This document shows, piece after piece, positions 1-13,754 of a stretch of DNA of 13,754 nucleotides. The position numbers were made by a program, and so were the translations under genes. The DNA comes from Candidatus Bathyarchaeia archaeon (GTDB lineage: Archaea; Thermoproteota; Bathyarchaeia; 40CM-2-53-6), in assembly GCA_049517415.1 (NCBI GenBank), contig JBEKSC010000044.1:1-13754 (forward strand), read 5' to 3'. Under the pieces are notes generated by a model that had not been told where the DNA came from, did no database searches, and was given only the letters and a program-made list of their open reading frames with translations. The first letter of the stretch is position 1; each line of letters begins with the position of its first letter.

Positions 1-2
1 CG

Positions 3-3000
3 TCCGCGGCGGGTTATCCGCAGACTCTCTGTGCTAGCGGCATAACAGTATTGAGGGGGCAATCCCTTCACTTCGACTGCTACCTACAACCAGGCCCAGT
101 AATACACGGAGACGTGTACACGAAGCACCAATTCGGCGACGAACCATGGCCCGAGACAACTTACGTTAAAGTGGAATTGTATGATGGCCCAACACTCAGC
201 CACATACCGGACTCAACTGCGAAACTTGTTTCTTGGTCACCGTTACCATGCGTTGCGGGAGGACAGCAACTTTACACTGGAATTTACACGGCGGGCGCCT
301 GTGGCGACCCTAGAAATGGGGGCGCGATCGCGTTCCCGTGGCATGAATACGTTCCATCGAACGGCTACGGCTCACCATCAGCAGCTGCCCCAAGCTTCTA
401 CCAAGTATCAACCGACGCTGCAGGCCTTCTGAATCCAAATGGGATTAAGACACAGGACCCCATGGGCGTTGGCCCACCACAGAATTGGTACGTGGTAGGT
501 GGCACAACGACACCATTCCATTTCGAATTCGGTGTGAAAGGAGAGTACGGTGCCCCAAGGGACCTTGATGGCATGGTGCCCCAGGTTTATGCAACTTGGG
601 TGAACGGGCTTACTCCGGGAAGGTACTATGCGAGAGCCTGGGTCTTCAGGTATGTGCAGTCCGCCCTGGACGGTTCAACCTTCCAGGAGTACTACTTCGA
701 CGTGACACCGAACGAGTGGGCTGGAGACGTGACGCTACCAATCGACCTGCGCTTAAGCAGCTGGATCAACAAGACCGTGTACTTCCACGACTCGGCTAAT
801 ACGATTGAAACGGACCCAATCGATACAGGCGCTGGATTAATGTCCGGCGTACTTGTTGACGCGAAGGGCCAAGTCTGGTCATACAACCAAACCTTACTGG
901 GCTACAATGGTCTCTACTCGACAGGTGCCAAGTCAGGCTGGGCCAGTAATGCGTTCAAGACTACGACAACCGTTAGGACACGGAACGACCTCGACAAGGC
1001 AGGATTGAACGCGCATGCAATTGAATCTGGACGAGCAAATATTCAGTTCTGGGGATGGAACGATACCTGGGGAGGAGAAAACTACGGCATCCCCTCCGGC
1101 ATTTACACGCCACACGTCTACGCCCTAGGATATGTAGAGGATGGCGCGGCGGAACAAGTTTCCGTCACACTCAGCGGCACCCCGACTAGCGTTAGTGATC
1201 ACATGTACCGAGGTACAGGATTCAACATAACTGTCAACTCAATCGACTGGGAGCAGCCAAGCGTAGAGAGGAACTGGGTATGGGGTAACCCCGTCGGTTA
1301 CACTTTCAGCGGCCTAGCATCGCTCGGAAGTGGACCCAGCTTCCCAGGTGACCCGCGAGCATTTATGGTTGGGGAAGAGATTGATTTGGGAATCTACCAG
1401 AACGGCACCTTGATAGACTTTATTGGAGATGAGCCAAGTGTTCTGCAAGATACCGTGCTCACCAGCTGCCTCTTCCAGAGCCAAACAAATTCCTCCGTCC
1501 AGCTCTGCGGCGGCGGATGGGACGCCGAATCCTCCCGCCTAGGCGCACTTATGCCATACGAGGGCAACAGTAATGACGTTTACTTCGGCCAGGAGTTGAG
1601 CGACCCTGGTTTCGTTGGCGGCTACACTGGCGGGACCCTATACTTTACGACGCGGTCGCTTCTGTTCGCGCCAGCGCACTACAGCCCAACCACGCTTCCC
1701 GACGGCGGAACATACGAAAGCGCTGTCATGGGTTACTTGAACCTCTACCCTTCAGCCATTCCTGCAGGACAATATGATTTGCACGGATACACTTACGGTT
1801 ACGTTCAGACGGGTAAGTTCACGGTGGACACGTCACCCACGCAAGTTGCTGATATGAGAATTAACCTCTTGATCGGCGTCAACGTAACCTTAGATATTCT
1901 CTTCAAGAAAGAGAGCATCATCACCCCGACCGACGCCAACATGTCAGCCAGAGTGCGACTGTTCGACGACTCAGGCAACTTGGTCGCTGAATGGATGTCG
2001 AGCGAAGGCGTATACGTGCCCCAGAGCGGGTTTGCGCGCGCCGCAGACGGAACCGACCAGTACCCATTCGGCCCACTCCACCCAGCGGTTCCTGTTCCGC
2101 AGCCGCTTAACACTTACAATTACCTTCCCGGCAACGTAACTCTGCTTCATATCTTGATGGCAGGCCTTCCGCAAGTACCCCCATCAGGAACCGATGCCGG
2201 AGTTCCTTCCCTCGCACGCTTCCACCCCCAGCAGGTTTACTTTAACGACCCCATATTCGCGACGACAACCTGTGGCTTCGAAGTTGATTGCTACACGAGC
2301 CCAGGCGCCGCGCTTGGAGTAGGCGTTCCAGGCTACTTCCCGAACACCGGCATCCTCGGCGCACCGAACTATTCGGGTGGCTGGACTGCGGAAGTTGACT
2401 TCGTGAACTGGTACTCCAACAACTCAGGCTCACCCGAGCTGCTCGACTCAGGACAGGTGGGACAAGGAGTAACGGGAGGAGCACCCTTCCCACAATACTA
2501 CCCGCCAATCAACGGCTTACTCATGGGCGAATCATACCACGTCATCCCAGGCACCACAGCCACATCTGGCATAAGCTTCACGGAAGACACGGCCCTCAAA
2601 CCGGAATTACTGGGCCACACGATGGCCCCGAACCACCTAGGGCCATACTCACAGGAAGGCGTCTGGCAAATAGACAACGCTCACTTGAGCGGTGAGGCCA
2701 GCGGAATCTTCGAAGTCGACCTGAACGGTTTGATCTCAGGCAATGCTCTAGCGTTCACGTGGAGTAACGAGCTGCGGCCTTTGAGCTGGGGCTTAGTTAA
2801 CGTCGTGGGCGCGAGCGGTGCGTCGTGGAACTTCTACAGCTACGACGGCATTTATGAGGCGTACCTGACGCCGGGCACGTACAAGTTCACCATAAGCTCA
2901 CCAGGCTACGCCTCGCAAAGCTTCTCAGTCGTTGTCTCACCTGGCCAAGCTGGGATAAGCCAGACCCAGTACTTGCAACAAAGCAACATTCCAGTCCCCG

Positions 3001-3077
3001 AATTCAGCGCAATCGGAATCGTAGCATTCTCAGCGCTCGCAGCCTCACTATACTTACTACGACGCAGACGCCACTAA
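3..3077 (+). CDS. Large secreted/surface (glyco)protein with repeated carboxypeptidase-regulatory-like beta-sandwich modules and a C-terminal PEF-CTERM sorting signal; 5'-partial
   Basis: The frame is open from nt 3 (SAAGYPQTLCASGITVLRGQ...), so the true start lies upstream of the window. Recurrent P-G-x-Y...GY modules (LTPGRYYARAWVFRYVQ, IPSGIYTPHVYALGYVE, IPAGQYDLHGYTYGYVQ, LTPGTYKFTISSPGYAS). G/S/T/P-rich with N-x-S/T sequons. Ends in IPVPEF + hydrophobic helix + RRRRH. Confidence 0.88.
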   Translation, partial: SAAGYPQTLCASGITVLRGQSLHFDCYLQPGPVIHGDVYTKHQFGDEPWPETTYVKVELYDGPTLSHIPDSTAKLVSWSPLPCVAGGQQLYTGIYTAGACGDPRNGGAIAFPWHEYVPSNGYGSPSAAAPSFYQVSTDAAGLLNPNGIKTQDPMGVGPPQNWYVVGGTTTPFHFEFGVKGEYGAPRDLDGMVPQVYATWVNGLTPGRYYARAWVFRYVQSALDGSTFQEYYFDVTPNEWAGDVTLPIDLRLSSWINKTVYFHDSANTIETDPIDTGAGLMSGVLVDAKGQVWSYNQTLLGYNGLYSTGAKSGWASNAFKTTTTVRTRNDLDKAGLNAHAIESGRANIQFWGWNDTWGGENYGIPSGIYTPHVYALGYVEDGAAEQVSVTLSGTPTSVSDHMYRGTGFNITVNSIDWEQPSVERNWVWGNPVGYTFSGLASLGSGPSFPGDPRAFMVGEEIDLGIYQNGTLIDFIGDEPSVLQDTVLTSCLFQSQTNSSVQLCGGGWDAESSRLGALMPYEGNSNDVYFGQELSDPGFVGGYTGGTLYFTTRSLLFAPAHYSPTTLPDGGTYESAVMGYLNLYPSAIPAGQYDLHGYTYGYVQTGKFTVDTSPTQVADMRINLLIGVNVTLDILFKKESIITPTDANMSARVRLFDDSGNLVAEWMSSEGVYVPQSGFARAADGTDQYPFGPLHPAVPVPQPLNTYNYLPGNVTLLHILMAGLPQVPPSGTDAGVPSLARFHPQQVYFNDPIFATTTCGFEVDCYTSPGAALGVGVPGYFPNTGILGAPNYSGGWTAEVDFVNWYSNNSGSPELLDSGQVGQGVTGGAPFPQYYPPINGLLMGESYHVIPGTTATSGISFTEDTALKPELLGHTMAPNHLGPYSQEGVWQIDNAHLSGEASGIFEVDLNGLISGNALAFTWSNELRPLSWGLVNVVGASGASWNFYSYDGIYEAYLTPGTYKFTISSPGYASQSFSVVVSPGQAGISQTQYLQQSNIPVPEFSAIGIVAFSALAASLYLLRRRRH
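2988..3077 (+). other. PEF-CTERM archaeosortase sorting signal (copy 1, intact)
   Basis: IPVPEFSAIGIVAFSALAASLYLLRRRRH*: motif, TM helix and basic tail, the tripartite layout of PEF-CTERM. Confidence 0.9.
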
Positions 3078-3150
3078 GGTGTGGGTTCCTCGAAGTCGGT
3101 TTCACCTTGTCATGACTATTGAGAAGCTTCAACTTGTAAGGCAAGCTCTA

Positions 3151-3176
3151 ATGTAGTACATGCCTGATGGTAGTAC
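3151..3176 (+). promoter_or_regulatory. Candidate antitoxin autoregulatory operator
   Basis: GTAGTAC at 3153-3159 and 3170-3176, the first inside the palindrome ATGTA-G-TACAT (3151-3161), just upstream of the ATG at 3188. Confidence 0.45.
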
Positions 3177-3187
3177 TTCGATGAAGC

Positions 3188-3418
3188 ATGACGGAAGAAG
3201 TACTGGTTACCAGAAAAGGGCAAACAACCATCCCTGTCAGGCTGAGGAAGAAGTATCGGATCAAGGAGGGTACGCGACTGGAGGTAATCGACTCAGGTTC
3301 AGGCATACTGCTGAAGCCCAAGCCGAACACGGTCGACCTTGCTGGCAGCGGTTCTAAGTACTCGACTCCTCGAGAGATGAAACGCCTCCTAGATAAAATG
3401 AGGGAAGAGGATGCCTAA
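3188..3418 (+). CDS. vapB: AbrB/MazE/SpoVT-family antitoxin (VapB-type)
   Basis: VTRKGQTTIPVRLRKKYRIKEGTRLEV is the AbrB swapped-hairpin signature. 76 aa; its stop overlaps the ATG (3411) of the PIN gene. Confidence 0.9.
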   Translation: MTEEVLVTRKGQTTIPVRLRKKYRIKEGTRLEVIDSGSGILLKPKPNTVDLAGSGSKYSTPREMKRLLDKMREEDA

Positions 3419-4160
3419 CCTTGTCGGTTCTGTTACCTTGTCGTTTGGTAACTCATCTGCATCGACTGAGGGATTACCGTCAGTCTCGGATTCCCATACC
3501 ATCGCTTCACTTGCAGAAGCGACGGCCGCGAACCTCACGGCTCTCGCCTGGCATTCACCAGGCCAGCTAGACCATTCGCCTAGTCAGGGTTTTACGCTTG
3601 GTCAAAAGCAACCACTTACCCAACATCGGCCTAATCGGCTTCTTCGGGTATCAGAACCCACATCCCGCCATTGACTAGGCTTCATCGACTGATGACTAGC
3701 CGAGAGATGTCGTGAAGCCGCAATTAACGCAGACAGGTGAGTAAAAATACCATCCACCAAACAGGAAGGTAACAGAACCAACCTTGTCTATGACACACGT
3801 TTCTTCATCGAACACTTCTACTCAACCAACAAAGGGGTTCAAGAAAGAACGACACATGAGCTCCTGACCAACAAGGCGAAGTACGTCTCAGTGATCACTC
3901 TCCACGAGGTCTATCGACTCACATTGGGAAAGGAAGGGCGTGAGACCGCGCAGCTCAGGGTCAGCCTCATCTCCAAGGATTTTGAGGTGGTCGATGTGAA
4001 CTCCGCCGTCGCTCTGAAGGCGGCTGAGATGCGGCATGGCTTATCCCTGCCGATGGCTGACAGCCTGATTGCGGCTACGTGCTTCACCCTCAAGGCCGCC
4101 TGCGTCTCCGATGACCCGCATTTTGCCGGAGTCCGAGGCCTCTCGACGAGATGGATCTAG
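3411..4160 (+). pseudogene. vapC: VapC PIN-domain toxin interrupted after codon 5 by a MITE
   Basis: Joining 3411-3425 to 3789-4160 gives a 128-aa ORF MPNLVYDTRFFIEHFY...VSVITLHEVY...MADSLIAATC...VSDDPHF...RWI with the acidic PIN residues present. The track ORFs 3411..3674 and 3891..4160 are the broken pieces. Confidence 0.9.
3426..3779. mobile_element. MITE (non-autonomous IS), 354 bp, with 24-bp imperfect TIRs and a 9-bp target-site duplication
   Basis: Left TIR GGTTCTGTTACCTTGTCGTTTGGT (3426-3449); right TIR ACCAAACAGGAAGGTAACAGAACC (3756-3779); outer 14 bp perfect, 21/24 overall. TSD AACCTTGTC at 3417-3425 and 3780-3788. No transposase ORF. GGTTCTGT ends resemble IS6-family ends, but the family is uncertain because IS6 usually gives 8-bp duplications. 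Confidence 0.93.
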
Positions 4161-4516
4161 GCTACCTCTGTAGAAAGATGGGCGAGAAGCCTGATCTCTT
4201 CTTTGGAGAACCAGATTTTCAACTTCTCAAACTGTCCTGGCCTCGCCGCCGCGACAACGGGATCTGCCAACTAAAGCCTCCTGACCGTTTCGAGGCTCCC
4301 GCTTTCCGTTGAGCCCATAAACCCATCTGGCTCAAGTTCCCATTCGAGGTTTGCCGGCAAAGTCGAGTTGCCTTGTTCGCTGCCATAGCCACAATCATCA
4401 TGCCGGCCGTAGTGTACGCAACCGCCGTAGCTAACAACGTCATAATTGCCGCAAAGAAAGTGAAAAAGACCGCCCGCGAAGATGTAGGCGCACTCCCTGA
4501 TAGGGGGAGAACTCCT

Positions 4517-4756
4517 TTGCCATCTGGGAATCCACGGATACAAGTTTTCCTTGACCCCTTGGTGTACACTGGACTACAAGCTCGTGCTATCGATAGAAAC
4601 TTGATCGTGAATGAGTTGGCGAAATCTATCTTGGGCGCTTATGTGAAGCAGGCGGCGGAAGAGAGAAGGAGTCCCCGCAATACTGCGGCATCTGGATACA
4701 TTGGTCGGAACCCTGCAGCTTCAAGCCAACTCAGTGTGAGCCATGAAGAGCCTTGA
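4517..4756 (+). CDS. Small ribbon-helix-helix (CopG/Arc-like) DNA-binding protein
   Basis: Proposed TTG start at 4517 after SD-like GGGGGA (4503-4508). RIQVFLDPLVYTGLQARAIDRNLIVNELAKSILGAYVKQ fits the beta-strand/helix/helix RHH pattern. It is the 3' part of track ORF 4373..4756. Confidence 0.55.
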   Translation: MPSGNPRIQVFLDPLVYTGLQARAIDRNLIVNELAKSILGAYVKQAAEERRSPRNTAASGYIGRNPAASSQLSVSHEEP

Positions 4757-4794
4757 ATGGCTAGAGAATCTCCCGACTTCAGTCGCGGAGAGTG

Positions 4795-5325
4795 TCAAAG
4801 TTTTCTGAGGTAGTCGAGTATCGCGCGGTAGTCATCTTCGCTCAGACGCCAACCTGCTCTTCGCATCTCCGTGAGTTTTCTTATTGCTTCGTCTCTTGGG
4901 ATCTCACCTTCTTGATACATCCTTCCGAGCAGATAACCAGTCCCGTGACATTCTACCTGCATCAGTTTGGCTGTGGACCTCGCGGCGTGGTCATCTGCGA
5001 TCAGAATTCCGTCGAGTTCCTTGGCGATAGCGAGTGCCTCTGCTTCAGCTCTGTGCAGAGGCTTGTTTTCGTCTTCGACAGCGATCTTCATGAGCCTCTT
5101 GACCAGCGAGGTGCTGCGAGGTCGAGTGAGTATCAGTGCGGCTTCTTCTACAAGTTCCCGTATCACTGCAGCCTCTGGTTTCCCTTGGGCTTCACCAGCC
5201 ATGAGCTCTTCGTAGACAGTTTCGGGTAACAACTTCTGGTTCTGCAGCCTCCTAAGGGCTTCCGCCAACGAGGCCTTGATTATGTAAATCACTGGAGTTG
5301 TGTCAAAGACCAAGGGCTTCGTCAA
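4795..5325 (-). CDS. DUF3368-family PIN-domain protein (COG2405-like putative toxin)
   Basis: VFDTTP...VYEEL...LHRAEAEALAIAKE...LIADDHAAR...GTGYLL...GWRLSEDDY, typical of DUF3368; directly downstream of a UPF0175 gene. Confidence 0.85.
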   Translation of the reverse strand: MTKPLVFDTTPVIYIIKASLAEALRRLQNQKLLPETVYEELMAGEAQGKPEAAVIRELVEEAALILTRPRSTSLVKRLMKIAVEDENKPLHRAEAEALAIAKELDGILIADDHAARSTAKLMQVECHGTGYLLGRMYQEGEIPRDEAIRKLTEMRRAGWRLSEDDYRAILDYLRKL

Positions 5326-5334
5326 GCGGGCGCT

Positions 5335-5637
5335 CTACCCTTTCCGCGCTGCCTCGAAGTCTTCGATGAACTCCTCCGCTGAATATCGTGTTGGTATCTT
5401 CTTTTTCTCGAGTTCTTCGAGAAATTCCCAGATAGAGCGGTTGGCGAGACTAGCGGCTTTCAGGGCTGTGACTCTTCCCTCTTCGTAGAGCCTGATCGCT
5501 TTCCCAAGTCTCCATTCTCTGATGTACAGGTCGGTTGCGCGGGCTATCACGGAAGATTTGTCGAGCTTCTCCTCCAACGCGATCCGCTCGATCTGGCGCG
5601 CAACCTCCTTTGGTAATCTTGCTGCTACTACCTCCAT
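5335..5637 (-). CDS. UPF0175-family antitoxin with N-terminal RHH
   Basis: Probable ATG at 5637 (MEVVAARLPKE...DKSSVI, RHH-like), followed by AIRLYEEGRVTALKAASLANRSIWEFLEELEKKKIP (UPF0175 pattern). Confidence 0.85.
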   Translation of the reverse strand: MEVVAARLPKEVARQIERIALEEKLDKSSVIARATDLYIREWRLGKAIRLYEEGRVTALKAASLANRSIWEFLEELEKKKIPTRYSAEEFIEDFEAARKG

Positions 5638-5665
5638 TAGTCGGCTCTTCGCCAAATCACGCACC

Positions 5666-5701
5666 GTTTACAATAGTTAATGATGTTTACAACCATTTAA
5701 G
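5666..5701 (-). promoter_or_regulatory. Candidate promoter/operator of the UPF0175-DUF3368 operon
   Basis: Minus-strand TATA-like CTTAAATGG (5701-5693) followed by the direct repeat TTGTAAAC (5692-5685 and 5673-5666), upstream of the ATG at 5637. Confidence 0.5.
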
Positions 5702-5896
5702 GCGTTCGTTCAAGTCCAAGCCAAAAGTCAATACTGCAAGAGCAGCGTTCCCAACCTCGTAATTCACAAGCCCAAGTGCCTTCAACTCGATGGCATCCTC
5801 GTGGAACTTCTGAAGAAGCAAGTCCGCCTTTTCTGAGAGCTCCTCAAACAGCAGGAATCTTGCCGGCACGGAAGCATCTACAACATAGACCTTCAA
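5687..5896 (-). pseudogene. vapC: Truncated VapC PIN toxin (N-terminal ~50 aa only)
   Basis: MKVYVVDASV...LVNYEVGNA matches a VapC N-terminus. The ORF then ends at 69 aa inside the next operon's promoter and lacks the C-terminal catalytic aspartates. Overlaps the antitoxin stop by 4 nt. Confidence 0.8.
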
Positions 5897-6135
5897 CGGG
5901 TCTTCCTCGCTTCCCGAATTGTCTGATTTATGAATCCTCTTGGCGCGACATGCTTGCGCGTGCGGATGTCCTCAAGAAGTTCCTGCGCAGCTTTCTTCCG
6001 TTCCTCTCGCTCGATCCTCTCCGTAATCGATTCGCGAATATACCGGGACCAGTTGATGGTGACCTGAGCCATCCTCTTCCTCAGCATATCGTCGACCTTC
6101 ACAGTAATCGTCCGCACGACTGACAGTACCCGCAA
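5893..6135 (-). CDS. vapB: VapB-type RHH/CopG antitoxin
   Basis: TITVKVDDMLRKRMAQVTINWSRYIRESITERIEREERKK...QTIREARKTR resembles archaeal RHH VapB antitoxins. The start may be GTG 6117. Translationally coupled to the PIN fragment. Confidence 0.8.
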   Translation of the reverse strand: MRVLSVVRTITVKVDDMLRKRMAQVTINWSRYIRESITERIEREERKKAAQELLEDIRTRKHVAPRGFINQTIREARKTR

Positions 6136-6152
6136 GCATTACCTCAGTACCC
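6124..6152 (-). promoter_or_regulatory. Candidate RHH antitoxin operator (direct repeat)
   Basis: CAGTACCC at 6124-6131 and 6145-6152 (21-bp period, about two helical turns) at the 5' end of the antitoxin gene. Confidence 0.45.
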
Positions 6153-6190
6153 CCCTAGAAGACTCACTTCTGATCCGCACTGATTAACGG

Positions 6191-6290
6191 GAGCAAAGCA
6201 ACATACCCGTCCCAGAGTTCAGCGTAATCGGGATCGTAGCATTCTCAGCGCTTGCAGCTTCTATATTTACTACGACGTAAACGCAAGTAA
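6191..6290 (+). pseudogene. Orphan PEF-CTERM tail (copy 2), frameshifted duplicate of the 3' end of the large surface protein gene
   Basis: Reads EQSNIPVPEFSVIGIVAFSALAAS-[2-nt deletion]-YLLRRKRK*. No start codon or passenger domain upstream. Confidence 0.88.
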
Positions 6291-6307
6291 AGCTCGGAAC
6301 CAAACGT

Positions 6308-6342
6308 GCCACCAGGCGGTGGCCTTCTCTTCCTCGTTTTCT
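6308..6342 (+). terminator. Hairpin plus pyrimidine tract after the orphan PEF tail
   Basis: GCCACC-aggc-GGTGGC (6308-6323) followed by CTTCTCTTCCTCGTTTTCT; lies between convergent units. Confidence 0.55.
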
Positions 6343-6363
6343 GGTTTGATTAGACTCATGTCT

Positions 6364-8151
6364 TCAACAGAGGAAGAGGAAGAGTGCGCTGCCAAGGAAA
6401 AGTGCACTGGGCGCCAACAAAAAGATGACCAGCCACGACCTCCTACTCAGGATGTGCAGAAAGCGAACCTTACGCCCTAGGTTTCCTATTGGCAGCCCAA
6501 TGTAGAATCCCCCAATGAGGACGTCGACAATAAGACTCGACAGCAATACTGATCCGGGCAAGTAGGTTGGGACTGCAACAGAGCAACGCGTTTCAAACTG
6601 CTGACTAGGAATGGCGTTGGTGCTATTTGCGATTGTGATGACGATGCTGACCGTATGGGCATTTGTTCCATCGCTTCCCTGCACGACTACCAGGTGTGTA
6701 CCGGGCGGCGCGGTAGGCGAGATGTTGATTTCGAAATTGGATGAAGCATTGCCTCCCAACGGGACATTGACTGGATTGGGATCAAAGCCGGACAACGCCA
6801 CTCCAGCAGGAAGGTTGGTCGGTTTGAAAGTCACACTTCCCGTATACCCTGAAACGGAAGTGCCGGTGACAGCGAGCGGTACGGAGGCCCCCTGCGCCAG
6901 AGAAATGTGTGAAGAGGAGAGGCTAAGAGCATAATCCGGGTTCGAAACTGAAAGTCGGGCGATCTTGTTCGCTCCCGGTTCACTAATCCAAACACTGCCA
7001 GACGAATCAACCACCACATTCCCCGGCAAGGCTGATCCCAATACATACTGTACAAACGGGCCCTCCTCTGAAGAGGGGAGAAAACTTGTGGTCGGAGCTA
7101 CTGCCTGAACAGCTTCTGTGGCCTGAGTGATTGTTGGCGAAAGGACTCTAGGGGGCCCTCCAGAAGGCGAGGTTAGAGGGGTAGTTGGGTAAAGCGTCCC
7201 GTTACCGAGATCGTTCAAGTACGCTACTGATTCATTCCCTCCTAGAGTAGATTGCTCCACAACCCAGGGTTGTTGGGTCAATGGGTTGATGCTTATCCCT
7301 CTCGGATTCGAACCGGGAACCGGAATACGCCATTCCTGAACTATGTTTCCACGAAGAACCCCGACAAAGTTGTCGGCACTGGACTGGTTAGCTACCCCTT
7401 GAGTATACCAAAGTTCGCCATGTGAATCAAACGTGAGGAAACGACCCACAGCCGATCCGTGACTGGGCAACGGGTACAGCGTGTACTGCTGCGACGCGCG
7501 ATCCCATCTGACGAGCGCGGAGAAACCTGCGAACCAAACGGAATCCGTACCCGCATAAACCCCATAAGCTCCCCCTCCCACGGCAGTGGGAAACGTATCC
7601 TCGTAGAACGTTACATTCCCTGTCTTTGTATCGTAAATGAATTCCCCGTTGCTATTTCTCGTGGTTTCGGTAAACCAAACCCGCGTCACACCACCAGGTG
7701 GTTCAACAGAAATGTAACCGACCCCGGTGTTTCCTCGTTGAAGCGAATATTCTTCAAATGATCCGGATCGAGGTGAGAAAGCGAAGACCTTGTCTGATCC
7801 GAACTCCGTACCCCAGATTGTCATCATGCCGGAGATCGTTGTTATCGCGATGCTGTAAGGGTTAGAATTGGCGGTTGGAATAGGCCATTCTTGGAAAACA
7901 TTTGTTCTGGGATCAAAATGAGCGATTTTGTTTCCGTAATACTCCAGGAACCAACAGCACTCGCCGGACTGGTCTAGCGTTAACGCCCACGGGCCACTTT
8001 GAGGTGTCGGCACTGTCCATTCAGTCAGCGAGGCAGAGGTTTGTGGAGACATTGTTCTGATCGCAAAAACATGTGGAAGGGTAAGTTGGGAGGATATTGT
8101 AACAATGATCGCAATCCCAAACAGGATTTTTGCTGCACCTGAACTGTTCAC
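6364..8151 (-). CDS. Secreted/membrane-anchored Vgb (virginiamycin B lyase)-like beta-propeller protein with an Ig-like domain and C-terminal TM helices
   Basis: N-terminal signal-like helix. Blade repeats (EWTVPTPQSGPWALTLDQSG..WFLEYYGNKIAHFDP; EWPIPTANSNPYSIA; EWRIPVPGSNPRGI; VVVDSSGSVWISEPGANKIARL). DYALSLSSSHISLAQGASV...GYTGSVTF Ig-like domain; two hydrophobic C-terminal segments. Confidence 0.8.
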   Translation of the reverse strand: MNSSGAAKILFGIAIIVTISSQLTLPHVFAIRTMSPQTSASLTEWTVPTPQSGPWALTLDQSGECCWFLEYYGNKIAHFDPRTNVFQEWPIPTANSNPYSIAITTISGMMTIWGTEFGSDKVFAFSPRSGSFEEYSLQRGNTGVGYISVEPPGGVTRVWFTETTRNSNGEFIYDTKTGNVTFYEDTFPTAVGGGAYGVYAGTDSVWFAGFSALVRWDRASQQYTLYPLPSHGSAVGRFLTFDSHGELWYTQGVANQSSADNFVGVLRGNIVQEWRIPVPGSNPRGISINPLTQQPWVVEQSTLGGNESVAYLNDLGNGTLYPTTPLTSPSGGPPRVLSPTITQATEAVQAVAPTTSFLPSSEEGPFVQYVLGSALPGNVVVDSSGSVWISEPGANKIARLSVSNPDYALSLSSSHISLAQGASVPLAVTGTSVSGYTGSVTFKPTNLPAGVALSGFDPNPVNVPLGGNASSNFEINISPTAPPGTHLVVVQGSDGTNAHTVSIVITIANSTNAIPSQQFETRCSVAVPTYLPGSVLLSSLIVDVLIGGFYIGLPIGNLGRKVRFLHILSRRSWLVIFLLAPSALFLGSALFLFLC

Positions 8152-8524
8152 GGTTAAACCTTCCCTGATTGGAGAAGCTTTGAACGCTATTTCTCCATTT
8201 CGAAATTAGCTCAGGAGCCATAGATGCTAAAACTTCACGCCTTCCCACCGATGTGTATCGCTGAGCAATAGGGAGTCAACACATTTCGTGGGACTTGTGT
8301 CTGGCTGGATTATGTCGGATCTGACCTATCGAGCATCGGTAATGTCATTAGCTTCGCGTACATCTAACTCGATCGCGCACTATTGATAACTGCCAAAGGA
8401 TGATACCGAGTTAATCCGTAAATACATGGGCTCTAGATTGAATTCTGTATCGCGAGCGCTGGCCCTCATCCCTGTTGCGGGGGCATAACGCTGAGAAGCT
8501 TGCAACATGGAGCACTAGATACCG

Positions 8525-9595
8525 TTACAATGCACAGGCTGCGAGAAGCCTTGCTATCATGAGCGCATCACGGATGTATATTTTCATTGGGATTAGCATT
8601 GGGCCGGTCCAGTCGTTGAGGGAATCCGAAACGTGTCCTAAGTAATAGAAGGTGTCGCGGAGCGTAGCCTTCTGAGATTCGTTAACAAGCTGAAGTTTAT
8701 GGTATGCCACTTTCTGTTGCTCAAGCAGCTCGTTGTATTCCCGGCGTTCGGTTGCTAGGCGCTGCTCAGAGAGCACGTGACCTACTTCGTTTTGCAAACT
8801 CCGGACTTCATCTTGCCAGCTCCGGACCACATCTTGCGAGCTGCGGGCATTCGTTTCTCTTTCGAGTGTTTCACAACGACGCTTCCAATGAATGACGCTT
8901 TTGTAGAGTGTGGATACCAGGATCAGTTCATCCGATTGCTGGTAGAGAACTTTCCCAATAATGCTGAACATGGGCGGGTTGATGTGACGGGGGACCAGGC
9001 CTGTGTCTTTGAGCCGTTGAATCCAGACGAGTGCATCCAGCCCTGGGCTTGAAAAGGAATACGTGATATCGTTCGACAGGTTGGTGAGCAAAAATCCGAT
9101 TGAGTTGGGTTCACGTGATCGGAAGGTCCACGAATCAGGCCCATGAGGGAACAAGGGTGACAGGATTTTCAAGCCCATTGCGGCCTGAAGCTCCTTTGGA
9201 TCACCCGTGCCGCGTGCCAGGTAGTTGATTCCCAGCAGCGAGTGGCTTCTACGCCACCAGAGGGCTCGGTCTCGGCCCCGAGGCGTGACGGCATAGATGT
9301 TCCTGACGCCTTTATTGTAGCCGCCTCGCACACGTCGGGGACCTTTGAATTTCAGTAGATGCCTTCTTTCGCTTAATCTTGACAAGATTTTTTGAATGTA
9401 ACTGCGAGGATATGATTGCAATGAAGGCCATTGGGCCGCCTGGTCGGAGGTAAAGAAGACGCATCGGTTTATGTCGGCGTCGTGTATCAGTAACGCGAGG
9501 AATTCATTCGCACCTTGTCGGAATCGATCTCTACTGCGTCCGCTCGCCATGATTTCATAGGCGGCCCGAAGGAGTGGAGGACTCATGCTTCTCAT
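8525..9595 (-). CDS. Hypothetical protein with N-terminal winged-helix-like segment and C-terminal coiled coil
   Basis: 356-aa ORF. SYIQKILSRLSERRHLLKF...NIYAVTPRGRDRA resembles a wHTH recognition helix and wing; RCETLERETN...LQNEVGHVLSEQRLATERREYNELLEQQK is heptad-like. The start codon is uncertain. Confidence 0.6.
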   Translation of the reverse strand: MRSMSPPLLRAAYEIMASGRSRDRFRQGANEFLALLIHDADINRCVFFTSDQAAQWPSLQSYPRSYIQKILSRLSERRHLLKFKGPRRVRGGYNKGVRNIYAVTPRGRDRALWWRRSHSLLGINYLARGTGDPKELQAAMGLKILSPLFPHGPDSWTFRSREPNSIGFLLTNLSNDITYSFSSPGLDALVWIQRLKDTGLVPRHINPPMFSIIGKVLYQQSDELILVSTLYKSVIHWKRRCETLERETNARSSQDVVRSWQDEVRSLQNEVGHVLSEQRLATERREYNELLEQQKVAYHKLQLVNESQKATLRDTFYYLGHVSDSLNDWTGPMLIPMKIYIRDALMIARLLAACAL

Positions 9596-9641
9596 CTGCG
9601 GATCGACGTTTCATCAGAGTGTTAAGAACTTACGTCGCGAC

Positions 9642-9675
9642 AAATGTCTGCGCAGAGTTTTTAACGCAGACATTT
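9642..9675. repeat. Perfect 11-bp inverted repeat enclosing a TATA-like spacer, in a divergent intergenic region
   Basis: AAATGTCTGCG (9642-9652) - CAGAGTTTTTAA - CGCAGACATTT (9665-9675). Confidence 0.7.
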
Positions 9676-9783
9676 CAGGCGCTCCATCAGATCTGGACAA
9701 GAATTGTCTGCAGCTCCGGAATCGCCACAAGTCAATCGGTGAGTTTAGAAGACGGCCTCTTCGGATCCTTATTGACTAATCAT

Positions 9784-9999
9784 ATGGCAAAGAAGAAAGT
9801 CACACTCCTCAGCCAGGGTCAGTGGAATTCCATCATTGATTCCCTCGTCCATCCTGCCACGAAAAAACGTCCAGAGTTCTGGGCGCTTGATACGCTGCTC
9901 CATGGCTTTGTTGAACAGAATCCCGAAGTGACCTTGCGAAAATTCGTCAAGTATACCGTTCCGAAACTTCTGAAGGAGGCTATACACGAGAAGAAATGA
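9784..9999 (+). CDS. Small basic hypothetical protein (71 aa)
   Basis: ATG at 9784 (MAKKKVTLLSQGQWNSIIDSLVHP...KEAIHEKK). The longer track ORF from 9574 would overlap the divergent gene start and the repeat region. A hairpin TTCCTTC/GAAGGAA follows at 10013-10033. Confidence 0.55.
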   Translation: MAKKKVTLLSQGQWNSIIDSLVHPATKKRPEFWALDTLLHGFVEQNPEVTLRKFVKYTVPKLLKEAIHEKK

Positions 10000-10080
10000 A
10001 TTTACACTCGAATTCCTTCCCGTAATGAAGGAAAGCGAAATATCTATGATATGCGACGGTCACAAGCGCTATAGATAGCT

Positions 10081-10353
10081 TTGAAAGTGGTTTCGGGCAT
10101 TCTGAATGCGCTTTTCCTTACCATGTTTCTGTTCGGACTGCTCACCTGGCTGTATGTTGTGGTAATCCAGGTATCACATCCTTCTTATTTGCCGACGGCT
10201 CTAAGTCACATTAATGTATTCCCACTAAATCTGCGAGTCGACCTAACCGGCATTCTTGGCTTCGGTATCTCAGCCGTCGGATTCTTCCTCTGGCAACTTT
10301 CTCTCCAACAAAGTGACTCCAAATCAAATGCACGAAATACCGGACGACGCTGA
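10081..10353 (+). CDS. Small membrane protein (two predicted TM helices)
   Basis: Hydrophobic segments ILNALFLTMFLFGLLTWLYVVVI and LTGILGFGISAVGFFLW; polar/basic C-terminus. Confidence 0.7.
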   Translation: MKVVSGILNALFLTMFLFGLLTWLYVVVIQVSHPSYLPTALSHINVFPLNLRVDLTGILGFGISAVGFFLWQLSLQQSDSKSNARNTGRR

Positions 10354-10420
10354 CGCGATTTTTGCAGACTCTATTTGCTGAAAGATCTCAAATCCGCTGG
10401 CGTTCCGTACACTACAATCC

Positions 10421-10471
10421 TCTGCTTTTTCCTATTCTTTAGGGAGAAGAAGTGAAAGAAGAGCCTCTTTG
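10421..10471. terminator. Candidate bidirectional pyrimidine-rich terminator between convergent units
   Basis: Plus strand TCTGCTTTTTCCTATTCTTT; minus strand CTCTTCTTTCACTTCTTCTCCC directly after the TAA of the orphan flippase tail. Confidence 0.4.
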
Positions 10472-10728
10472 TTATTGGGCTACGACTAGCCGCGACAAAA
10501 TGTCGCACATTCTACTGGAACGTGGTCCGAGCGTACGCCGGAGTAGGTCAATGTCGGCTGTACTCATCGCCTTCAATGCCCGCATCGCAAGAAGGTAGGC
10601 GAGGAGCCCGACTGCAAGGTAAGCTGGGAGTAGAAATCGGCTGTAATAGAACAGCTGGAGGGCTTCCATGACCAAGGCCATACCCCCGCTGGCCACGACG
10701 CTCTTCAGGATGGCTTGCGCGTCAAGTT
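10472..10728 (-). pseudogene. Orphan 3' end (84 codons) of a polysaccharide flippase gene
   Basis: Ungapped direct repeat of 13310-13566 (offset 2838). LDAQAILKSVVASGGMALVMEALQ...RLVVAQ is 66/84 identical to the other copy. Similarity stops at 10728, where an in-frame TAA precedes it. Confidence 0.88.
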
Positions 10729-10812
10729 ACCACGAGCCCTACAAGAGGATAGGATCTTCGAATCCACTACGGCTATATGTGATCAGCGAGATGCTGGTTC
10801 ATTGAATCTAGG

Positions 10813-11295
10813 ATGACACGAGCCTCGGATTGGCTGATCCTTATCATCGCAATCCTAGTCGCGGTAACCATGATCGGCCCGCTGTATCCATCAGCTCAGA
10901 TCAACCAGCCTCTGCAACCAAGTTTTGGTCAAGCCATTGTGGCCGTCAATAATGCGGAGGCGGCGGGGGCTACTCCAAACGAAACTGCTCCGCTGGTAAC
11001 TCTTCTCAATAAGGCGCTTGAATTGAACCAAGAAGCATCAAGCTTGCCCCCCAATCAAACCGAACAACGTAATGCCCTATTATCAAGCGTGAACGAAATT
11101 CTGACGAATGTAACTAATCAAGCAAACGATTTAACCTCTACATCAGCCCGAAGAACCTACACGAACAAGATCATAACATACCTCAGCGGCATAGTTGTAG
11201 CAGTCGTCGGAACGTTCGCCTACGTACTCGGCGTGGAACTTTACCAGAGATATCGCATCAAACGAACTTTCCAGATGAGGGTCAAAGCGAAATGA
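10813..11295 (+). CDS. Membrane-anchored helical hypothetical protein (N- and C-terminal TM), partner of DUF1616
   Basis: Signal/TM helix, helical ectodomain (GQAIVAVNNAEAAGA...LVTLLNKALEL), C-terminal TM and basic tail. 4-nt ATGA overlap with the next gene. Confidence 0.75.
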   Translation: MTRASDWLILIIAILVAVTMIGPLYPSAQINQPLQPSFGQAIVAVNNAEAAGATPNETAPLVTLLNKALELNQEASSLPPNQTEQRNALLSSVNEILTNVTNQANDLTSTSARRTYTNKIITYLSGIVVAVVGTFAYVLGVELYQRYRIKRTFQMRVKAK

Positions 11296-11936
11296 AGTTC
11301 ATATCAACACAGAATAAACGAACGCTAATCGCGGTCTTCATCGCCCTCATTGTAGTCGCGGAAACGGCGGCGTTCGTGGCGACCACGCCACGCCCACAGG
11401 AACTATTCTTCCAATTCTACGTCCTCGGCTCGAACAGGCTTGCTGCAGACTACTACCCACAAAACAACACCAACGTTCGCGTAGCCTCGCCCCTGTCATG
11501 GTATGTTGGCGTAACCAACTTCATGGGAAACGTACAATTAGTCGAGATAAGATTGAAGTTAGGAAACGAAACCACAACTCCCCCCAACGACACTAGTAAT
11601 ACCCCCTCATCGGCGCCCGAACTCATAACATTCGACCGATTCCTGATGAACAACGAAACCTGGGAATTCCCATTCGCCTGGAGCATAACCAACGCCACTG
11701 CGACAGGTGGATCCACCCGTATCCTCACAGCAAAAATTAACAATGAAACCTACGAGATATCAAATTGGTCCGCCACCAACGGCTACAACTTCCGGCTCAT
11801 TCTTGAACTCTGGGTATGGCAGACCAACACAAATGCGTTCGAATATGGCTGGAGCAGCAATGGAGAAAGACGAACAGCATGGCTTCAGATATGGTTCAAC
11901 ATGACCAACCCCAGTAGTCCTCCACCACCAGCCTGA
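11292..11936 (+). CDS. DUF1616-family protein, extracellular (C-terminal) half
   Basis: One TM, then TPRPQELFFQFYVLGSNRLAADYYP...WYVGVTNFMG...RLILELW...WLQIWFNMT, resembling the DUF1616 ectodomain; many N-x-S/T sequons. Confidence 0.8.
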   Translation: MKFISTQNKRTLIAVFIALIVVAETAAFVATTPRPQELFFQFYVLGSNRLAADYYPQNNTNVRVASPLSWYVGVTNFMGNVQLVEIRLKLGNETTTPPNDTSNTPSSAPELITFDRFLMNNETWEFPFAWSITNATATGGSTRILTAKINNETYEISNWSATNGYNFRLILELWVWQTNTNAFEYGWSSNGERRTAWLQIWFNMTNPSSPPPPA

Positions 11937-12153
11937 TCCAACCATTGCTATCACTTTAGTAAATAGACGGAATGACTCTGCCTGATTAAGTGTGCAACGA
12001 TTAGGCAGCAAGTATCGATAGCATTACGTTGGCGGTCAGTGCCCTCAGGGACGCAATAAGCTTCGATCTTCTTCCCCTGACAACTTTCTCTGAGAAGTGA
12101 AGACAAAAAAACACACGAAACACGGGACGATGTCGACGTGATGCTAGCAAGCT

Positions 12154-12777
12154 CTATCTGAAGGACGTTAGATCCTGCTGGAAATATCCCCTAACGAGCG
12201 AGACTAAGACCAGTCCGAGGCTGATAATTGTTAGCGAAATCACGATGGGAGTCATCCTGATTCCCCACGGCGTATAGTTCAGCAGAAGGCCGATTAACGG
12301 CACCAATGCAAGACTCAATCCGATGCTCAACGCGAAACGTTCAAGCGAATTAAGCTCGCTCCTCCTAGATAACAGGGCCTCGACCGTCGCATATCCCGGG
12401 ATGAAGAGCACGAACACCGATCCAAGCACCCATCGAATGGACACCCAAGGCAAATCAGCCGGCACTACATATATCGATAAGATTGCCGCGAAAGCGAGCA
12501 CCAACGAACCGTAGAGTGCTAGGTGCCTTTCCCACAGTCCCAGAAACCGTGTGAAGGGTTTGGTAACGGGCCAAGCATCCTCTAACTGTGCTTTGCCCTC
12601 ATCGGACAAACGCCAAACCATGTCCACTACTTCCAATTCAGTTAACGATGGATTACTGATCCTTAACGCTCCATGTAACCGTTGGACACTCGTAGTGCCA
12701 TACTTGCCTAGGAATTCCAGAGTGAGTTGGTCGAGGCTTGATTCAGAGCCGGTGCTATGCGGTTTCTCACTTTTCAT
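12154..12777 (-). CDS. DUF1616-family protein, membrane (N-terminal) half, with an N-terminal wHTH-like domain
   Basis: IRWVLGSVFVLFIPGYATVEAL...ELNSLERFALSIGLSLALVPLIGLLLNYTPWGIR is the DUF1616 TM signature. Confidence 0.85.
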   Translation of the reverse strand: MKSEKPHSTGSESSLDQLTLEFLGKYGTTSVQRLHGALRISNPSLTELEVVDMVWRLSDEGKAQLEDAWPVTKPFTRFLGLWERHLALYGSLVLAFAAILSIYVVPADLPWVSIRWVLGSVFVLFIPGYATVEALLSRRSELNSLERFALSIGLSLALVPLIGLLLNYTPWGIRMTPIVISLTIISLGLVLVSLVRGYFQQDLTSFR

Positions 12778-12787
12778 TACGAGGCTC

Positions 12788-12970
12788 TCATATCCATCGG
12801 CCAGCCAACCTACAGACTGTGCGCATTACTTCGGATTGAGTGAGTGACGAAATTCTAGCTTTGAGCACATCACAGAGGTCCTGCAAGTTTGTTGTACCAT
12901 TTCCTTCGAGCATTTGCAGCGCTTGATCCTCAAGGCTCATGTCATAACTTTGCGATTTAGCAGTGTTCAT
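12788..12970 (-). CDS. Stand-alone (possibly truncated) paralog of the N-terminal wHTH-like domain of the downstream DUF1616 protein
   Basis: SLEDQALQMLEGNGTTNLQDLCDVLKARISSLTQSEVMRTVCRL aligns with SLDQLTLEFLGKYGTTSVQRLHGALRISNPSLTELEVVDMVWRL; 10-nt gap to the next ATG. Confidence 0.6.
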   Translation of the reverse strand: MNTAKSQSYDMSLEDQALQMLEGNGTTNLQDLCDVLKARISSLTQSEVMRTVCRLAGRWI

Positions 12971-13079
12971 TTGTAGATTTCACCGCCGCCATTTCATGCG
13001 TGCGGATACTTGAATGAATCTCAATTGATTCTTGGCCGCGGAATAGCCTCAAATCTCTCCAACGATCCTGAAGCAGTAA

Positions 13080-13223
13080 CTGGACCCAATCCGCCCAATT
13101 CGCTACGGTATCATCGCAAACAGCCTACACACCATACCCGTACCAGAATTCAGCGGAAGCGCAGCAGTCGCCTTCTCCGCGCTCGCAGCAAGCCTATACC
13201 TACTCAGACGCAGACGCAAGTAG
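13080..13223 (+). pseudogene. Orphan PEF-CTERM gene remnant (copy 3)
   Basis: Not in the ORF track: LDPIRPIRYGIIANSLHTIPVPEFSGSAAVAFSALAASLYLLRRRRK*, bounded by TAA at 13077-13079 and TAG at 13221-13223; no ATG/GTG/TTG start. Confidence 0.85.
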
Positions 13224-13238
13224 AATCACAGGGCGAAC

Positions 13239-13256
13239 GGGGCGCGAATGCGCCCC
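13239..13256. terminator. GC-rich hairpin between the convergent PEF remnant and the flippase
   Basis: GGGGCGC-GAAT-GCGCCCC, a perfect 7-bp stem. Confidence 0.5.
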
Positions 13257-13309
13257 TAAGCTTCCACTCAGATAGCCGTTGGTCACAGAGAAGCGGGAGA
13301 GTTTCGCGG

Positions 13310-13754
13310 TTAGGTGGATAGGACGAGGCGCGACAAGAAGTCGCATATTCTACCAAAGTGTGGTCCAAGCATACGTCGGAGTAAATCGATGTCGGCCGTA
13401 CCCATTGCCTTCAATGCCCTCATCCCGAGAAGATAAGCGAGGAACCCGACCGCAAGGTAAACTGGGAGCAAGAATCGACTGTAATAGAACAGTTGGAGGG
13501 CTTCCATGACCAAGGCCATACCCCCGCTGGCCAGTAGGCTCTTGAGAATGGTGTGAGAATCAAGTTTGACAGTGATCTTTCGCCGCACGAAATACCACGT
13601 CAGCCCGAGACTAAGCAGCATTGCAAGCGCGCGGGCAATCGAGGCGCCCACTATGCCCATCACCGAGACCAAGATCAATGCGGCGGCAACGCCGAGAGGG
13701 ATAGGAAGTATCGAGGTTAGGGCGGCAAGCCTTGTCTAGTTCAGAACGATCAGG
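13310..13754 (-). pseudogene. Wzx/MATE-like polysaccharide flippase, 3' part, with an in-frame TAG; 5'-partial
   Basis: The frame from the window edge reads LIVLN*TRLAALTSILPIPLGVAAALILVSVMGIVGASIARALAMLLSLGLTWYFVRRKITVKLD..., the C-terminal polysaccharide-biosynthesis (flippase) pattern. TAG at 13738-13736. Confidence 0.75.

Follow-up and report, generated by a model that had tools for sequence, protein, structure and literature searches.

Toxin–antitoxin cargo between a gene and its stranded old 3' end: probable one-sided recombination in an envelope-gene island of a Bathyarchaeia archaeon

How does a gene come to be followed by a block of cargo and then by a second, diverged copy of its own 3' end, when no integrase lies between the two copies? 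The question is raised twice by a 13,754-nt stretch of DNA from an uncultured Candidatus Bathyarchaeia archaeon (contig JBEKSC010000044.1; hereafter the window), which is the entire contig C44 of genome G000 (2.65 Mb, 59 contigs). G-numbers denote genomes (G000 is the host of the window, the others are relatives), L-numbers loci and C-numbers contigs. An earlier note on this DNA had described a surface-protein gene and, on the opposite strand, a flippase gene, each separated from an orphan copy of its end; both duplications, the cargo lengths of 3113 and 2581 bp, the exact cores within the copies and the four stop codons were reproduced exactly. Comparison with related genomes leads us to think that the layout was probably produced by one-sided homologous recombination with DNA from relatives and an illegitimate second joint, which would have given the gene a new 3' end together with extra genes and stranded its old end downstream. 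The pair formed by the surface-protein gene (pair 1) carries this argument and is laid out as follows.

3..3077, plus strand: surface-protein gene, 3' 1024 codons, with a PEF-hydrophobic-RRRR sorting tail; the gene is whole (~1400 aa), its 5' part lying at the end of contig C24
2979..3077, plus strand: present 3' end of the surface gene, likely the incoming allele; an AbrB module starts ~5 nt past the stop
6190..6290, plus strand: orphan PEF tail 1, in which 2 nt are deleted; the old end of the gene, resident-like in sequence
6291..6363, plus strand: spacer with hairpin and pyrimidine tract, aligning with the spacer of the empty allele in G014
6364..8151, minus strand: Vgb-like beta-propeller membrane-protein gene, which faces the surface gene directly in empty alleles

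The two copies of the surface-gene end (2979-3077 and 6194-6290) are 84.8% identical over 99 nt (E 4e-23 in a whole-genome search), and only 8 open codons precede the PEF motif of the orphan. Empty alleles of the kind that the earlier note had called for, in which a surface gene directly faces the Vgb-like gene, were found in G014, G018 (with ~200 nt of additional spacer), G002 and L247. The surface gene of G014 is 91% identical to that of the window over 3070 nt, up to approximately position 3000. Over the 34 nt that open the tail, the orphan agrees with G014 at 33 positions and with the gene's own end at 29, and the present gene end agrees with a paralog on C26 at 33 positions and with G014 at 29. 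Because the orphan matches G014 at 33/34 positions and the gene end does so at 29/34, orphan PEF tail 1 fits a resident-like end, with the allele switch apparently at or before its 5' edge. The ratio of nonsynonymous to synonymous divergence (dN/dS) between gene and orphan is 0.04 at dS 0.55 (21 codons), and the corresponding value for the flippase pair is 0.14 at dS 0.65 (82 codons). Neutral decay after in-place duplication of a short piece is ruled out by these ratios; purifying selection has acted between gene and orphan, and therefore two working alleles met. Pair 1 is thus a direct fit to one-sided displacement.

The PEF motif is present in the surface-gene tail, although the PEF-CTERM model TIGR03024 scores it at 13.2 against a cut-off of 23; an exosortase-family gene adjoins the C26 paralog. 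The terminator-like hairpin noted earlier behind the PEF orphan does fold (~6308-6323), with a z of -0.74 that is not above chance. The same site displays a different kind of exchange as well: the Vgb-like gene of G014 is 89% identical to that of G018 and 69% to that of the window, with 72% and 91%, respectively, for the surface genes. Whole genes thus appear to have been swapped between lineages at the surface-gene/Vgb-like site (L016 compared with L019).

The following course of events would account for pair 1. A donor fragment would carry a stretch of the gene itself or of a paralog, including the stop, and the DNA beyond it, often with a toxin–antitoxin (TA) pair. Host recombination, presumably through RadA, would cross over inside the gene, no further downstream than the later 5' edge of the orphan and outside the exact core, and the far end of the donor would then be joined illegitimately. 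Products with joints just ahead of the old stop would keep a whole gene, the old terminator and the facing neighbor, and would survive. Allele switches lie at or upstream of the orphan edge at the PEF tail, at L282 and at the flippase, with a direction that cannot be fixed at most sites.

The cargo of pair 1 is pieced together from three TA modules, with copies of 81-94% identity elsewhere in relatives; one toxin gene is truncated and another is split by a 354-bp element.

3188..3418, plus strand: AbrB/MazE-type antitoxin (Pfam PF04014); copies of 81-87% nt identity at other sites in G018 and G004
3426..3779, no strand assigned: non-coding element of 354 bp that has inserted at the start of vapC; its ends are inverted, and a 9-bp target sequence is duplicated on either side (3417-3425/3780-3788)
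3780..4160, plus strand: VapC (PIN) toxin gene (Pfam PF01850), its first codons separated off by the 354-bp element
4733..4799, plus strand: short palindromic element repeated in relatives (fold z -2.27), which resembles an IS200/IS605 right end and may be one
4795..5722, minus strand: DUF3368 (PIN-like) and UPF0175 TA-type module; copies of 90-92% nt identity at other sites in G032 and G013
5739..6189, minus strand: VapB antitoxin and truncated PIN gene, the upstream edge abutting the orphan; copies of 92-94% nt identity in G003, G014 and G004

The VapB match to NCBIfam NF050799 is slightly below the cut-off. The 354-bp element, which is multi-copy in the genus, splits an AbrB-VapC pair that is whole in G004; a joint 3416-3780 was also seen, and part of the element (3449-3548) matches DNA right after the only TnpB-domain gene of G000 (C17:50851-51151). 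Two open reading frames (ORFs), 4373-4756 on the plus strand (127 aa) and 8525-9595 on the minus strand (356 aa), have no confident family, and a search of the genus at the nucleotide level gave one short matching piece for them. The G+C contents of the two cargoes (0.52 and 0.50) are near that of the surroundings and uninformative. In four of the five clear TA cases among the loci compared, the TA operon beside the orphan is oriented against the target gene, and its promoter side is the one that adjoins the orphan (window 5739-6189; G000 C3:12697-13437 and C4:112130-112928; L086), G015:C64 being the exception.

Does the exact identity within each pair mark a crossover or an attachment (att) site, as the attL/attR-like reading of the earlier note proposed? 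The cores comprise 20 nt (3018-3037/6233-6252) and 40 nt (10656-10695/13494-13533). Of 325 pairs of intact tails with that same degree of identity, 30% have a run of at least 20 nt in common; the exact 20-nt core is held by one other allele among intact tails, and the 40-nt core is matched at 38/40 positions in the intact flippase gene of G033 and at 36/40 in that of G002. The orphans also keep to one allele across the core. Ahead of it, PEF orphan 1 shows the 33/34 agreement with the empty allele; the flippase orphan has a 46-nt run in common with G033 and is nearer to G033 on both sides (29/33 against 23/33, and 154/181 against 141/181). The exact cores are therefore ordinary conserved stretches in which the orphans are not chimeric, and they are ruled out as crossover sites. 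Orphan 5' edges range over ~500 nt, the outermost lying 474 nt ahead of the PEF proline and ~24 nt behind it. Since the targets are unrelated, the edges variable and the orphans non-chimeric, there is no single att site. No inverted repeats were found around either cargo, the flanking repeats being 99-251 nt long and 82-85% alike; a casposon or a transposon with target duplication was rejected, as neither terminal inverted repeats nor a short exact duplication is present at the cargo ends. The earlier statement that the cargo lacks a recombinase was borne out: contig C44 has no match to the tyrosine recombinase family PF00589, and none of the 17 ORFs scanned in the window gave a recombinase family. 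Searches of the window ORFs, several of which are short and without family, against Pfam and NCBIfam likewise revealed no endonuclease gene in the cargo and no Rhs/VgrG core or toxin-tip domains, and an Rfam search gave 0 matches at E 0.1.

The layout is not confined to the window. Among 71 distinct surface-gene-family loci with at least 1 kb of downstream DNA, a same-strand orphan tail lies downstream in four (the window, L263, L282 and L319) and an internal surface-gene fragment in three. Where a TA gene was detected downstream, an orphan tail is present at 3 of 4 loci; of the 67 loci without one, a single locus has such a tail. At L282 the cargo consists of three metabolic genes that are lacking from the sister loci L283, L284 and G004:C48, and identity to L283/L284 drops from 85-100% to 73-78% within the last few hundred nt. 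A minimal case, on contig C64 of G015, comprises the gene, one AbrB/VapC-type pair and a 68-nt orphan. About 12 of 57 tail matches, in 8 genomes (one uncertain), are orphans, at loci that were picked partly for short open frames.

A census of low-copy repeats in G000, which includes pair 2 and leaves out pair 1, counted seven gene 3'-end duplicates downstream and none upstream (p 0.016); ORFs were called mechanically and some rows are spurious frames. Selection would account for the downstream bias, since a joint before the old stop would keep both the gene and the 3' end of its neighbor. The seven genes encode 141-aa and 355-aa ORFs without Pfam match, a luciferase-like oxidoreductase, two long or Thr-rich surface-type proteins, an ABC-2 permease and the flippase, and the cargo holds a TA pair in two cases, an integrase-like ORF in one and a core gene in one. 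Displacement is hence not envelope-specific and hits unrelated genes. The recurrence that the earlier note had suggested is real (three further loci of the surface-gene family and six further genes of G000), and its idea that envelope genes are the target found no support. At C3:12553-13620, a gene, a VapC module and an orphan stand in place of a single-copy empty allele in G014 and G018, and in G003 the window's own VapB/PIN module is flanked by the 3' end of a vapC gene and the orphan copy of that end. The reverse arrangement, in which a 5' end is stranded, exists for amt in G000 and also in G013. In G000, 5 of 14 PIN genes lie within a direct repeat of 30-400 nt; among control ORFs the figure is 8 of 200 (p 0.004 once one paralog pair is taken off the PIN side). 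Two further lines were set aside: direct repeats around PIN genes, seen at 18 of 50 such loci in relatives, which had no control and included multi-copy repeats and TA remnants, were not used beyond single cases, and the relation of tail to body synonymous identity (74 genes, r 0.56, few discordant pairs) was not used as proof.

Surface-gene tails and bracketed cassettes turn up in other settings too. Short secreted-looking proteins and a beta-propeller protein end in a surface-gene tail at G000 C18:27407-27931 and C2:140502-141481 and at L118 and L119, and the tails of these G000 genes, which are unrelated to the surface gene, have 75-85% nt identity to it, so that capture of the sorting signal by new genes is possible. 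Near-identical tails with terminators are found on C4 of G017 (L087-L090) and at L113, in four dispersed surface-gene copies and one orphan, which suggests gene conversion among paralogs. At G000 C9:14696-21131 (L142), the ABC-2 permease end is duplicated around 6.3 kb that include an integrase-like ORF and a Cas1 C-terminal piece. At C13:24639-31316 (L152), 6.5 kb with genes for transporters and decarboxylases, in which no integrase was matched, lie between copies of an 80-nt repeat whose start looks like the 3' end of a tRNA. A 141-nt direct repeat at C2:105286-106170 (L149) encloses a SMODS nucleotidyltransferase gene and a DUF6602 gene, which may form a defence pair. An actin-family match (PF00022, E 7.5e-13) at L104:9597-11060 in G015 stands beside a JAB-domain gene.

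The right-hand part of the window, with pair 2 on the minus strand, is a less clear matter. Its features are these.

13310..13754, minus strand: polysaccharide flippase-type gene, 3' part (PF13440/PF01943 on the 79%-identical G033 protein); the gene is whole, with its 5' part at the end of contig C38
10472..10728, minus strand: flippase 3' end present as an orphan; its frame is unbroken, and it has 87% identity to the intact allele of G033
10813..11936, plus strand: 160-aa ORF and DUF1616 gene, island residents, with 84-85% nt identity to a block beside the flippase in G033 and G013
12154..12777, minus strand: second DUF1616 gene (Pfam scan)
10081..10353, plus strand: 90-aa membrane ORF without Pfam or NCBIfam match; its family has repeated members in these islands, and a second copy of the 3' end lies at 12069-12181
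12069..12181, plus strand: degenerate repeat of the ORF 10081 3' end, convergent with the second DUF1616 gene
13130..13222, plus strand: orphan PEF tail 2, with a GC hairpin, facing the flippase stop

The flippase copies (13316-13566 and 10478-10728) are 82.5% identical over 251 nt (E 4e-67, whole-genome search), and the orphan keeps its frame unbroken for 84 codons. The intact gene is a mosaic relative to G002, at 86-93% over the first 900 nt and 74-85% thereafter. The genes between the copies are at home in the island: the DUF1616 block stands near the Vgb-like or the surface gene in six relatives (G014, G018, G003, G002, G004 and G011), and therefore is native. In G033, a whole flippase gene whose end is the closest to the orphan lies left of the same 160-aa/DUF1616 block (85% identical), the stranded allele thus being still attached to a whole gene; in G013, an internally deleted flippase gene occupies the place of the orphan beside that block. 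No empty site for pair 2 was found among the 23 genomes searched, relatives having the whole or the internally deleted gene in the place of the orphan. Flippase fragments in relatives had first looked like many more orphans and were discarded as mostly frameshifted whole genes or contig ends, with one clear orphan (G013) and three possible ones (G008, G011 and G015).

Two features that had escaped the earlier note belong to the same region. PEF tail 2 is 76% identical to the surface-gene end and forms with the flippase a unit (13130-13754) that recurs in G033, where the PEF remnant starts at an insertion sequence (IS)-like end and carries an internal deletion. The pair 10282-10400/12069-12181 (71%, E 1e-4) is a third and weaker one. 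Pair 2 is ambiguous on the sequence comparisons, as side-by-side alleles of which one lost its 5' part explain it at least as well as insertion. More likely, pair 2 and PEF tail 2 are by-products of the same DNA traffic, a second flippase allele having come in and the other having lost its 5' part. The claim that an incoming allele restores the gene and strands its old end consequently stands for pair 1, with its empty alleles and resident-like orphan, and is doubtful for pair 2, whose cargo is native.

Other explanations have to be weighed against one-sided recombination for the window as a whole. Strain-chimeric misassembly, raised by the earlier note as a danger, might be suspected in a metagenome-assembled genome with 6.86% contamination, and unitigs do break at the 40-nt repeat. 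Two long metagenome contigs are, however, 100% identical to window positions 1-10074, and single unitigs cover 3488-10685 (2 runs) and 10666/10669-13523 (7 of 7 distinct runs), crossing the orphan-cargo junctions with no differences and at a nearly level depth; six of the seven runs are possible sources of this very DNA. Misassembly is ruled out by these data, and the chance we still allow it is vanishingly small. A recombinase acting in trans, either a relaxed tyrosine integrase like Int-pTN3 or the Cas1-type transposase of G000, is very unlikely in our estimation to have integrated the cassettes. G000 does have six Phage_integrase matches on four contigs, the C9 case holds the integrase-like ORF and Cas1 piece described above, and Int-pTN3, an archaeal integrase, can mimic homologous recombination on segments down to 104 bp with low sequence specificity (PMC5495485). 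The targets nevertheless have no common core, the orphan edges are scattered (-474 to ~+24 nt relative to the PEF proline), each pair consists of working alleles that have diverged and not of fresh target duplications, and the multi-copy repeats near C9, C12 and C39 have no match in the window.

Excision of a circle between gene end and orphan, followed by re-entry through one crossover at a similar end, would need no recombinase gene and corresponds to the circle model that Jackson et al. (2009) proposed for rhs (PMC2935791); the reading of the earlier note comes near to it. Minimal cassettes of a single TA pair, 0.8-1.35 kb between repeats of 65-133 nt (C3, C4, G015:C64 and G003:C4), would suit it, as would variable orphan length, which that proposal expects (PMC2935791), and the near-identical paralogous tails of G017, which offer many landing sites. 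One crossover within the repeat should, however, leave an orphan with a donor-type 5' end, and both window orphans match one allele throughout; the same TA module also lies at unrelated sites with different flanks. Joints skipping either cargo, from a circle or an empty site, were sought in the contigs of four runs and none was seen at 97% likeness, with the reservation that contigs and unitigs lose rare variants; a low-depth joint 10716-13557, present at 85% likeness in two runs, was gone at 97%. We regard such circles as quite unlikely. Tandem copies or alleles standing side by side, one of which lost its 5' part and persisted as terminator of the facing gene with the cargo gathered separately, seem an unlikely explanation overall, and are the better reading than insertion for pair 2 and PEF tail 2. 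Every orphan in the window (4/4) does face a convergent gene, and the whole flippase of G033, the internal deletion in G013 and the truncated PEF remnant of G033 all point in this direction. Against it, none of the 71 loci has a second full surface-gene 3' part within 1-7 kb downstream, a single gene stands beside the Vgb-like gene in four relatives, 3' duplicates lie downstream and never upstream (7 to 0), and orphans are associated with TA inserts.

Several observations count against one-sided recombination itself. Every step is read from genomes, recombination not having been observed, and DprA was not found in G000. Just 5 differences inform the allele affinity of the PEF tail, and the G014 tail departs from both window copies further along; the same site in G003 holds a different insert of 4.6 kb without an orphan. 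L263 and L319 have a common vapC piece and may be one event, and for most orphan PEF tails of relatives the 7-8 kb upstream contain no intact gene. Tail exchange is frequent, and donor and resident are indistinguishable at L282 and C3; the C3 gene end and orphan look nearer to each other than either does to the empty allele, and the cargo at C3:116066 is a core gene present in 12 relatives. The flippase orphan of G013 arose as an internal deletion, so plain deletion also makes orphans. With these points counted in, one-sided recombination is still the explanation to which we would give somewhat better than even credence.

The window is, by its gene content, evidently part of a cell-envelope/glycosylation gene island, with glycosyltransferases, epimerases, flippases and TA pairs as neighbor genes in relatives of its loci, and its DNA is contained in peat, wetland and soil metagenome runs. 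TA pairs are called mobile and yet are seldom accompanied by a mobility gene. Stranded gene ends would be a countable scar across genomes that records which allele arrived, and the route by which TA pairs are gained becomes testable by comparative genomics and long reads; surface-protein tails would be exchanged between lineages ~25% apart. One may go further and picture recombinase-free spread of TA pairs and small envelope cassettes through Bathyarchaeia, with host gene ends as landing pads, tail-cargo-tail units that arise with each insertion and could circularise and land at any tail of similar sequence, and the near-identical sorting-signal tails of the multicopy surface gene as a genome-wide hub and as anchors for new surface proteins; this extended scheme strikes us as rather unlikely.

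How does the window compare with known systems? Integrative elements are known to replace gene 3' ends at att sites, as tRNA islands and e14 in E. coli icd do. They resemble the window in that the gene is restored and its old end displaced, and differ in needing an integrase and a fixed core, neither of which is present here. Searches of papers by title and abstract start returned no archaeal report of the gene-cargo-orphan-end layout, in a coverage that left out most subscription journals and supplements. In an archaeal island of surface-protein and glycosylation genes, the cell-wall island of Haloquadratum walsbyi, homologous recombination has reshuffled genes, including short patches of the S-layer gene (PMC4535781); unlike the window, it is reported to have no gene duplications in clade I, and the sections consulted describe no stranded 3' ends. 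Fungal mitochondrial endonuclease ORFs carry a foreign C-terminus for the gene they enter (Allomyces atp6; Glomus atp6, atp9, cox2 and nad3; PMC3630166). There too a foreign 3' end restores the gene and the native end lies downstream and is the nearer of the two to the allele of the relative, whereas an endonuclease of the element's own drives the move and none was found in the window cargo.

Homology-facilitated illegitimate recombination, described in Acinetobacter, Streptococcus pneumoniae and Pseudomonas stutzeri (PMC2884548, PMC5361080), shares with the proposed process a one-sided homologous anchor, an illegitimate joint at the other end and the lack of an element-borne recombinase; it was shown by experiment in competent bacteria, in contrast to a process read here from genomes in a host without a detected DprA. 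Duplication by this route requires a joint ahead of the old stop. The same layout occurs at rhs loci, for which a circle carrying a core fragment that varies in length was proposed (Jackson et al. 2009, PMC2935791); homology-facilitated illegitimate recombination was proposed for type VI secretion system (T6SS) modules (Kirchberger et al. 2017, PMC5361080), and PMC8125069 and PMC2884548 restate the circle and illegitimate recombination models. C-terminal displacement at rhs, vgrG and T6SS genes and the window have in common a gene that is intact and ends in an incoming 3' part, additional genes and a stranded old end, as well as variable fragment length, the lack of a dedicated integrase and the choice between circle and illegitimate recombination as explanations. 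In C-terminal displacement, the swapped tip is a non-homologous toxin at specialised loci, whereas in the window the swapped end is a near-synonymous sorting signal with its terminator, the payload is what follows, many unrelated genes are affected and the host is an archaeon. The process in the window thus appears to work like rhs C-terminal displacement without being a member of that system, its swapped ends being homologous (dN/dS 0.04-0.14). Because the mechanism is already known in kind, the surprise is limited; the archaeal host, the many unrelated target genes and the homologous swapped ends are what sets it apart, and if the reading is true, 3'-end displacement reaches beyond the specialised toxin loci of bacteria and acts on ordinary genes in an archaeon that is abundant in peat.

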